Below are positions 4,280 to 5,918 of a stretch of DNA of 6,926 nt, one piece after another. The translations under genes and the position numbers were made by a program. The notes under the pieces are model-generated. The model had not been told where the DNA came from. It saw nothing but the letters and a program-made list of their open reading frames with translations, and ran no database searches. How positions within the stretch are numbered: position 1 is the stretch's first letter; each line of letters begins with the position of its first letter. The stretch is from Escherichia coli (GTDB lineage Bacteria > Pseudomonadota > Gammaproteobacteria > Enterobacterales > Enterobacteriaceae). The stretch is taken from the NCBI RefSeq assembly GCF_003334385.1, contig NZ_QOWN01000075.1; one strand, written 5' to 3'.

Positions 4280-4353
4280 CCTGCCAGTCACTCCGGGAAT
4301 TAACTCTTTTCACCACAGTCTCCATTGCCGTGTTTAAACCAGTGGAGACGTCA

Positions 4354-5918
4354 ATGTCCAGAAAGAGAAAATCCAGGAGCACTATGGAAACCTGTTTTAA
4401 GATCCTTCAGCTCAAGTTCGACAAGAAGCTGACTAACCGTTGTATCGGACTGACGTTACACATCAGCGCCTCAACCGTTTTTGAGGTTCTTGCCCGCTTC
4501 AAAGCCTCTTCTCTGTCATGGCCATTACCTGCTGATATATCCCATGACACGCTGGAGAAACTCATTTTTCCGCCCAAAGACACCTTTGCATCAGAGCTTG
4601 TAATGCCTGACATGTTGTACTTCGATACGGAAATGAGAAAACCAGGTGTGACGCGGCAACTGTTGTGGATGGAATACAAGGCACAGGCGGGTGACAAAGC
4701 GATGGGATACTCGCACTTCTGCCGTTGCTACCGGGAGTGGAAAAAACGCGACGTCTCTCCATGCGCCAGGAGCATCGTGCCGGTGAAAAGCTTTTTATCG
4801 ACTTCTGTGGTCCTACGGTTTCTGTTATTAATCCGGACACCGGTGAGATACGCCGCGTGGCAATCTTCGTGGCCGTAATGGGGGCGTCCAACTATACCTA
4901 CGTTGAAGCGTGCGAAGGTCAGGACATGATGTCATGGTTAAATGCCCACAGCCGTTGCCTGACCTTCCTGGGCGGCGTACCGAAGCTGCTCATCCCCGAT
5001 AACCTCAGAAGCGCAGTGAAAAAGGCCGATCGATATGAGCCTGTCATCAACGACAGTTATCAGGCACTGGCTGAGCACTATGGCACGGTTATCATCCCGG
5101 CCCGACCACGCAAACCTAAAGATAAACCAAAAGCAGAAAACGGCGTCCTCATCGTCGAACGATGGCTTCTTGCCCGCATCCGTAATGAAACCTTCCACAC
5201 GCTCAGGGCGCTGAATGCGCGCCTTAGGGAGTTACTGACAGACATGAATAACCGGCCAATGAAGGGGTACGGCAATCAAACCCGTGCAGAACGCTTCCGC
5301 ATACTGGATGCGCCAGCACTCTCTCCGCTGCCTCTGGCACCTTATGAATACACGGAATACAAAGCTGTGAAGGTTGGCCCTGACTACCACGTTGAATATG
5401 CCCGTCACTGGTACTCCGTTCCACACGAACTGGTCGGTCAGCGTCTGTCACTGAAGGCGGGGCAGTCGGTGGTACAGCTCTGGCACAAGGGGCAGTGTGT
5501 GGCGCAACATCCGCGCAGCACACATGAATATAAACACACAACCAATCCGCTTCACATGCCAGAGCGCCACCGGCAGCACGGGACATGGACACCGGAACGC
5601 CTGATCGAGCAGGGAAAACGTACGGGCCCGTCCACAGGCCGGGTGGTTGAATCCATGCTGAAGGCAAAACCCCATCCGGAACTGGCTTATCGTGCAGTTC
5701 TGGGGCTGCTGGCACTTCAGAAAAAATACGGCCCGGAACGGCTGGAAAAGGCCTGTTACATTGCCCTGCACTATAACGCCCCTGACAGACGCTTTATCGA
5801 CAATCTGCTGCGTCACCATCGGGAGAACCTGGAGCTTCCATTATCCCGCCAGGGCGAACAACATCCGGCATATGCTTCAGAGCATGAAAACCTGCGTGGT
5901 CCGGGCTACTACCACTGA
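4354..5918 (+). pseudogene. istA: IS21-family transposase IstA, interrupted by a -1 frame change at an A6 run (4741-4746)
   Basis: The N-terminal HTH region (ILQLKFDKKLTNRCIGLTLHISASTV) is in the frame of ATG 4354 (GGAG at 4344-4347); a second in-frame ATG at 4384 is preceded by AGGAG at 4375-4379. The catalytic region (AGEKLFIDFCGP...) is in the -1 frame to TGA 5916-5918. One extra A in the A6 run would give a continuous ...CYREWKKTRRLSMRQEHRAGEK... of about 521 aa. Confidence 0.8.

Follow-up and report, generated by a model that had tools for sequence, protein, structure and literature searches.

The istA gene of an IS21-family insertion sequence (IS) in Escherichia coli carries two ATG codons in one frame and ten codons apart, each behind its own Shine-Dalgarno (SD) sequence, and raises the question of whether two forms of IstA are initiated on one mRNA. 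The locus lies in a window of 6,926 nucleotides, which is the whole stretch of DNA analyzed (contig NZ_QOWN01000075.1 of assembly GCF_003334385.1). Comparison with related elements indicates that, in intact elements of this type (ISSso4), both ATGs are probably genuine alternative initiation sites on one istA mRNA.

Two in-frame starts in istA

The 5' end of istA in the window contains the following features:

4342-4344, plus strand: GTG, third in-frame candidate start (ATG in the Salmonella, Yersinia and Serratia relatives)
4344-4347, plus strand: SD1, GGAG, with a spacer of 6 nt (ACGTCA) to ATG1; anti-SD energy -6.4 kcal/mol
4354-4356, plus strand: ATG1, candidate start of long IstA (521 amino acids in intact copies), invariant in the alignment of close relatives
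4357-4383, plus strand: nine codons (SRKRKSRST), putative basic N-terminal tail of the long form only, with coding-type substitutions
4375-4379, plus strand: SD2, AGGAG, within the codons AGG AGC, with a spacer of 4 nt (CACT) to ATG2; anti-SD energy -6.6 kcal/mol
4384-4386, plus strand: ATG2, candidate start of short IstA (511 amino acids) and start of the PGAP coding sequence; predicted first residue of helix 1

The sequence from leader to second start reads CAGTGGAGACGTCA-ATG-TCC AGA AAG AGA AAA TCC AGG AGC ACT-ATG-GAA. ATG1 and ATG2 are separated by 30 nt (10 codons) in the same frame, within the open reading frame 4273-4878, and the intervening peptide is MSRKRKSRST. An earlier note had pointed out this pair of ATGs with their SDs and spacers, and all of its coordinates proved correct when they were re-read. 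An anti-SD energy of -6 kcal/mol is reached by ~8 to 10% of the 141 plus-strand ATGs in the window, and an adjacent in-frame pair that both reach this value is unlikely to arise by chance. The GTG at 4342 is in frame four codons 5' of ATG 4354 and overlaps SD1; it was considered as a third start, has no SD (anti-SD energy +0.6 kcal/mol) and is probably not used.

Structure of the element

The element and its parts other than istA are as follows:

4152-6789, plus strand: ISSso4-type IS21-family IS with TG...CA ends, 2638 bp here and 2639 bp when intact
4152-4314, plus strand: left terminal region, with five to six repeats of GATCAnnGnTTTGGCATC spaced by ~23 bp (repeat search)
5935-6690, plus strand: istB, AAA+ helper ATPase, intact (NF038214, 257 bits against a cut-off of 200; also PGAP)
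6696-6789, plus strand: right terminal region, carrying inverted copies of the repeated motifs

Matches in other genomic contexts run from ~4151-4152 to ~6789 and bound the IS, which PGAP labels “IS21-like element ISSso4 family”. Its termini (TGCAAAATGG at 4152 and ...ATACGCA at 6789) are of the 5'-TG...CA-3' type of the IS21 family, and the placement of istB, which begins 16 nt past the istA stop, also fits this family. An intact IstA copy matches the IS21 family transposase model NF033546 with 283.5 bits (cut-off, 160), and the Pfam domains rve and Mu-transpos_C_2 are detected on IstA homologues. At the left end, an inner inverted-repeat segment (4289-4314) matches 6696-6718, and this pair of segments is invariant among relatives. 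The ends are asymmetric, with five to six repeated motifs on the left (4152-4314) versus about three on the right (6696-6789).

The host gene of the insertion is yeeR, and the empty site in K-12 joins 4151 to 6794. Compared with that site, the window has exactly four extra nucleotides, and the flanks differ (CTGG at 4148-4151 on the left and GCGG at 6790-6793 on the right); any target duplication, which in the IS21 family spans 4 to 8 bp, would be imperfect. ISSso4-type copies occur in about a third of complete E. coli genomes. Among the genomes with intact copies, E. coli MS 200-1 (NZ_CP146679) has the element at 21 places and GF60 at 29. At least 10 complete E. coli genomes have chromosomal copies with 100% identity to the window copy, while many intact ISSso4 copies elsewhere have ~99.5% identity to it, and the copy on the Shigella sonnei plasmid pFORC11.1 has 96.7% identity to it over the 5' region.

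Decay of the copy in the window

The istA gene in the window is interrupted:

4354-5918, plus strand: istA, a pseudogene here, in frame 1 to a stop at 4876-4878 and in frame 3 for the remainder (open reading frames 4273-4878 and 4725-5918)
4741-4746, plus strand: run of six A residues (seven in intact copies), a 1-nt deletion in the alignment with intact copies

The istA frame breaks 129 codons past ATG 4354. PGAP flags the gene as “frameshifted”, with intact copies being 1536 nt long from ATG2, and because of the frameshift the window istA matches NF033546 over its N-terminal 133 residues only. Translation from ATG1 and ATG2 in the window gives 174 and 164 residues, respectively, consisting of the HTH region and a 43-residue out-of-frame tail. 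Given the change from A7 to A6, the window copy could not make two full-length IstA forms but only truncated peptides. At least 10 complete E. coli genomes have the identical defective copy at this yeeR site, and the defect is therefore inherited rather than a sequencing error. Programmed -1 frameshifting or slippage at 4741-4746 was considered and rejected, as the A7 of intact copies is in frame and 38 of the 40 clade representatives described below lack the run; judged from these comparisons, the A-run defect is decay.

The window copy is thus a dead remnant, in which the dual-start question is moot, and the question applies to the element type. The suggestion in the earlier note that this element could make two IstA forms, as IS21 does, consequently fails for the frameshifted window copy and holds as a proposal for the element type, in which SD2 is conserved at synonymous sites.

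Conservation of both starts in related elements

The 5' region was compared among copies from E. coli, S. sonnei, a Salmonella plasmid (83% DNA identity), Yersinia ruckeri (80%) and Serratia (73%). Six relatives, the most distant at 73% DNA identity, share both ATGs without change, along with the TGGAGAC that precedes ATG1. Frame-breaking indels in these close relatives occur only upstream of ~4336, and the tail varies from MSRKRKSRST to MSKKRKARSS and MARKKVPRSS. In all ISSso4 copies inspected, PGAP places the istA start at 4384 (ATG2), and RefSeq gives the 511-amino-acid form only.

A wider clade was surveyed through 80 loci, which were taken from one-per-species genomes via catalytic-domain motifs and whose DNA was read directly, independently of gene calling. 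These loci span 43 to 99% protein identity and come from Gammaproteobacteria, Deltaproteobacteria, Acidobacteria, Chloroflexi and Alicyclobacillus. In a protein search, the pattern M-x-[KR]-K-[KR]...[RK]-[ST]-x-M-(helix) can be followed down to ~50% identity, and gene callers in relatives alternate between long and short IstA, with many choosing the short form. For the analyses below, 40 representatives at <80% identity were drawn from the clade loci.

Start 1 is present in 40/40 representatives, as ATG in 32, GTG in 4 and TTG in 4, and is preceded by an SD with an energy no weaker than -4 kcal/mol (median, -6.9 kcal/mol). Its distance to start 2 is mostly 7 codons, with 5 codons in a Pseudomonas/Thiocapsa group and 10 or 11 in the ISSso4 group. 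Start 2, found by a motif search without constraint at the start-2 residue, is ATG in 80 and GTG in 2 of 82 loci, with no other codon. Where start 2 encodes valine (two loci plus two further proteins), the codon is GTG in 4/4, while GTG makes up 35% of Val codons (p ~0.016). The median anti-SD energy is -5.95 kcal/mol at start 2, compared with -1.5 kcal/mol at 268 other in-frame internal ATGs (Mann-Whitney p = 4e-15; the clade statistics, here and below, treat 40 related sequences as independent, and their p-values are optimistic). A Vibrio-type subgroup (AAA AAG AGA ACT CCA ATG) has a weak SD2 of -2.9 kcal/mol, which counts against dual starts, as does the annotation of ATG2 alone by PGAP.

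Homologues conserving only one of the two start positions had been named in the earlier note as the finding that would speak against it; in the relatives, both starts with their SDs are retained from 99% to ~43% protein identity. In several lineages start 1 is a weak codon (TTG or GTG) and start 2 stays ATG, an arrangement that would shift the balance toward the short form.

Synonymous-site constraint at the internal Shine-Dalgarno sequence

The tail codons immediately before start 2 are unusual in their synonymous choices. The residue at position -3 from start 2 is Arg in 34/40 representatives, and its codon is AGG or AGA in 32 of these 34. AGR codons account for 8% of all Arg codons in the clade istA genes and for 38/664 (6%) at 18 other conserved Arg columns, including the Arg residues 8 and 18 codons past start 2 (Fisher p = 2e-33). 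In the two CGN exceptions at -3, GGAG is formed by the start-1 codon plus GAG, and in two lineages in which this Arg is replaced by Gly, the codon is GGA. Lys at -4 is encoded by AAG in 18/18 cases versus 46% gene-wide (p = 1e-6). The third-codon position at -10 is G in 30/34, and other third positions of the tail carry 0.2 to 0.4 bits. A fixed G at synonymous sites beside free third positions suggests that an SD is being selected (its core, GAGG, lies ~6 nt before start 2), and SD2 is read here as being maintained by selection at synonymous sites across the clade.

The same codons could be viewed differently if only ATG1 were used, with ATG2 an internal Met capping helix 1 and the purine codons the product of a required Lys-Arg motif and N-terminal codon bias. 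SD1 is indeed stronger than SD2 on average (median of -6.9 versus -5.95 kcal/mol), the tail is under protein-level constraint, and a Met at the helix 1 N-cap could be kept for structural reasons and the K-R motif for DNA binding. Bacterial genes generally use more rare and A/G-rich codons at their very beginning, a bias that could explain part of the AGR excess, and the other Arg codons of the tail are also AGA (AGA AAG AGA in the window). However, general N-terminal codon bias favors A or T, not G, whereas the fixed synonymous sites are G, not A (AAG at -4 and G at -10), with the neighboring third positions of the tail unconstrained. The Arg residues 8 and 18 codons downstream are CGN, GGA is retained in the R-to-G replacements, and Val at start 2 is always GTG. 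The weak SD2 of the Vibrio-type subgroup agrees with the use of ATG1 alone; the location of SD1 within a hairpin of -15.5 kcal/mol in ISSso4 does not, and IS21 shows exactly such a design working as an internal start. Exclusive use of ATG1 is consequently considered improbable, although it is the strongest of the alternatives to initiation at both ATGs.

The basic N-terminal tail

In the clade alignment, the second codon of the long form is xCx without exception (Pro, Ala, Thr or Ser), basic residues are retained and third positions vary. This coding-type pattern of substitution between the two starts suggests that the tail is translated. An AlphaFold model built with 30 homologues has residues 1 to 10 non-helical (pLDDT ~45) and helix 1 at residues 11 to 22. 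The 10 extra residues are therefore predicted to be a basic disordered tail, and start 2 is predicted to be the first residue of HTH-1 helix 1.

The position of start 2 relative to other IstA proteins was derived from a profile alignment that is weak (5.1 bits), in which nodes 17 to 45 of the clade N-terminal profile align with IS5376 residues 12 to 40, gapless over ERGxS...IA...GI.R.TV..Y. By this alignment, with which the structure model agrees, start 2 corresponds to residue 3 of the IS21 and IS5376 IstA proteins. A phmmer search of full-length IstA against the PDB did not align the N terminus, and the comparison there used an alignment of IS21 with IS5376 IstA together with the local profile.

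Predicted structure of the leader

A stem is predicted immediately upstream of ATG1:

4318-4349, plus strand: predicted leader RNA hairpin with arms 4318-4327 and 4340-4349, the 3' arm holding SD1

The hairpin has a predicted energy of -15.5 kcal/mol (z = -4.2), and 0/200 shuffled sequences were equally stable. It buries SD1 only, with the region from ATG1 to past ATG2 being unstructured (z = 0.24). The stem is retained in the Salmonella and Serratia relatives, in which three variable pairs change to G.U only, and double compensatory changes were found in 0/23 pairs of the hairpin. Across the 40 representatives, the predicted pairing of SD1 is 0.80, versus 0.60 with mononucleotide-shuffled leaders (Wilcoxon p = 3e-9). 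No known RNA family was found in the leader. A consensus scan, a weak negative, detected no sigma-70 promoter in the leader or right end, and with no consensus promoter in the leader all transcripts probably contain the stem. A similar pairing of SD1 is predicted in the IS21 leader (L088, 1950-2003).

A stable hairpin that sequesters SD1 would also suit the exclusive use of ATG2, the upstream ATG and its SD then belonging to a leader without productive translation, perhaps one silenced by the hairpin. The PGAP start at 4384 in all inspected copies and the choice of the short form by many gene callers in relatives agree with this explanation. It accounts poorly for the 5 to 11 codons between the starts, which keep their frame and character (M-[PAST]-x-[KR]-[KR]...) with free third positions over >50% protein divergence, for the start codon with an upstream SD in 40/40 representatives, and for the confinement of indels to the region upstream of start 1. 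It is regarded as unlikely, slightly more so than the use of ATG1 alone. A coincidence of a chance in-frame ATG and a chance purine run, without biological meaning, could draw on the ~8 to 10% of window ATGs that have an SD-like sequence by chance, but it is scarcely credible for an arrangement conserved, with synonymous-site constraint, in ~80 loci of several phyla.

Comparison with IS21 and other transposition systems

In IS21, istA has two in-frame starts, from which the transposase (from M1) and the cointegrase (from M9) are produced (Schmid, Seitz & Haas 1998, summarized in PMC10122671). The internal start is experimentally established, and the cointegrase lacks the first 8 residues (PMC10122671). 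The earlier note had mentioned the two IstA forms of IS21, correctly, and the 5' sequence of IS21 istA (ATG CTG AGC AGA GAG GAC TTT TAC ATG) agrees with them.

The ISSso4 arrangement resembles that of IS21 in several respects. Both elements belong to the same IS family, and at the istA 5' end each has a pair of in-frame starts separated by only a few codons. The SD of the internal start is formed in both by an AGR Arg codon and the codon that follows (AGA GAG GAC in IS21 and AGG AGC in ISSso4), and a pyrimidine tract further upstream is the predicted pairing partner of the first SD in either element. However, the starts are 10 codons apart in ISSso4 and 8 in IS21, and M9 of IS21 lies six residues further in than start 2 of the clade, inside helix 1. 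The same applies to IS5376 IstA, whose N terminus is MITRGEFFM and whose M9 is also inside helix 1. The ISSso4 short form would retain all of HTH-1, whereas the IS21 short form has a truncated helix 1, and the ISSso4 long form would add a basic tail, whereas MLSREDFY of IS21 is not basic. The ISSso4 short form thus corresponds roughly, according to the structure model, to full-length IS21 IstA, and the long form to the same protein with an added tail.

Positional homology of the ISSso4 starts with M1 and M9 of IS21 was considered and is ruled out by the profile alignment and structure model. The analogy drawn in the earlier note therefore stands for the dual-start design and not for the positions of the starts: the two systems are analogous in design and not positionally homologous. 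Isoform specialization has been demonstrated for IS21 only, and with differing start positions the division of labor between transposase and cointegrase is not simply transferable to ISSso4.

Structures of IS5376 IstA (cryo-EM, 8B4H and 8Q4D) provide a further comparison. The protein is homologous to ISSso4 IstA (E = 1e-13 to the catalytic part) and has the same layout of two HTH domains, DDE domain and beta-barrel. IstA of ISSso4 is ~110 residues longer, and its basic tail has no counterpart in IS5376. In the IS5376 structures, the first eight IstA residues are located at the HTH-1 interface in the center of the tetramer (PMC10122671).

Other elements share parts of the design proposed for ISSso4, namely, N-terminally different proteins from in-frame starts and the masking of the first ribosome-binding site by structure in the leader, as in IS50/Tn5 and IS10. 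IS50/Tn5 encodes a transposase and an inhibitor, Inh, which lacks 55 residues and has its own transcript, and in IS10 and IS50 the transposase ribosome-binding site is sequestered by fold-back. Unlike in Tn5, the difference in ISSso4 is 10 residues, the consensus scan revealed no second promoter, and the transposase is of a different family. Literature mentioning ISSso4, as far as its accessible text goes, does not appear to address translation, and conserved second starts in relatives may have been mentioned earlier in print.

Proposed model and implications

In the model favored here, in which both ATGs of intact ISSso4-type elements serve as starts, initiation at ATG1 (4354) would produce a 521-amino-acid IstA with the disordered basic tail MSRKRKSRST, and initiation at ATG2 (4384) would produce a 511-amino-acid IstA from the first residue of HTH-1 helix 1, the SD of ATG2 being encoded by the tail codons AGG AGC. 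The hairpin, which would bury SD1 and leave the ATG2 region open, probably limits the long form and sets the ratio of long to short form; of all parts of the model, this throttling by the stem is the least certain. If IS21 is a guide, the long and short isoforms probably differ in their behavior during the two steps of transposition.

A broader proposal is that the large clade of ~510-amino-acid ISSso4/ISAS5-like IstA proteins has its own conserved two-isoform system, with the tail present or absent, a ratio set by a hairpin masking the first ribosome-binding site and isoforms that differ in tandem or junction steps. This proposal is tentative and, taken as a whole, rather doubtful.

Resistance and virulence plasmids often carry IS21-family elements. 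If both starts are used, database annotation, which holds the 511-amino-acid form only, misses an isoform, and the transposase/cointegrase idea of IS21 would apply, in a modified version, to a far larger set of elements. The basic tail would then also be a handle on how the IstA N terminus, which forms the tetramer core in IS5376, tunes the reaction. None of this bears on the window locus itself, since its copy is dead.

Neighboring features of the insertion site

Upstream of the IS, the window contains a decayed IS66-family element (1198-3548), in which tnpA is intact (1198-1527), tnpB is a pseudogene according to PGAP and tnpC is frameshifted (open reading frames 1900-2673 and 2670-3491). 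Further upstream lies the C-terminal (beta-barrel) part of an autotransporter gene (45-1019), annotated without its N terminus, which fits the flu/yeeR region of a CP4-44-like island. Residues 16 to 80 of IstA (window 4399-4593, HTH-1/HTH-2) show a sub-threshold match (55 to 57 bits; cut-off, 150) to the IS66 accessory TnpA model NF038385, which hints at a DNA-binding module common to IS21 IstA and IS66 TnpA.
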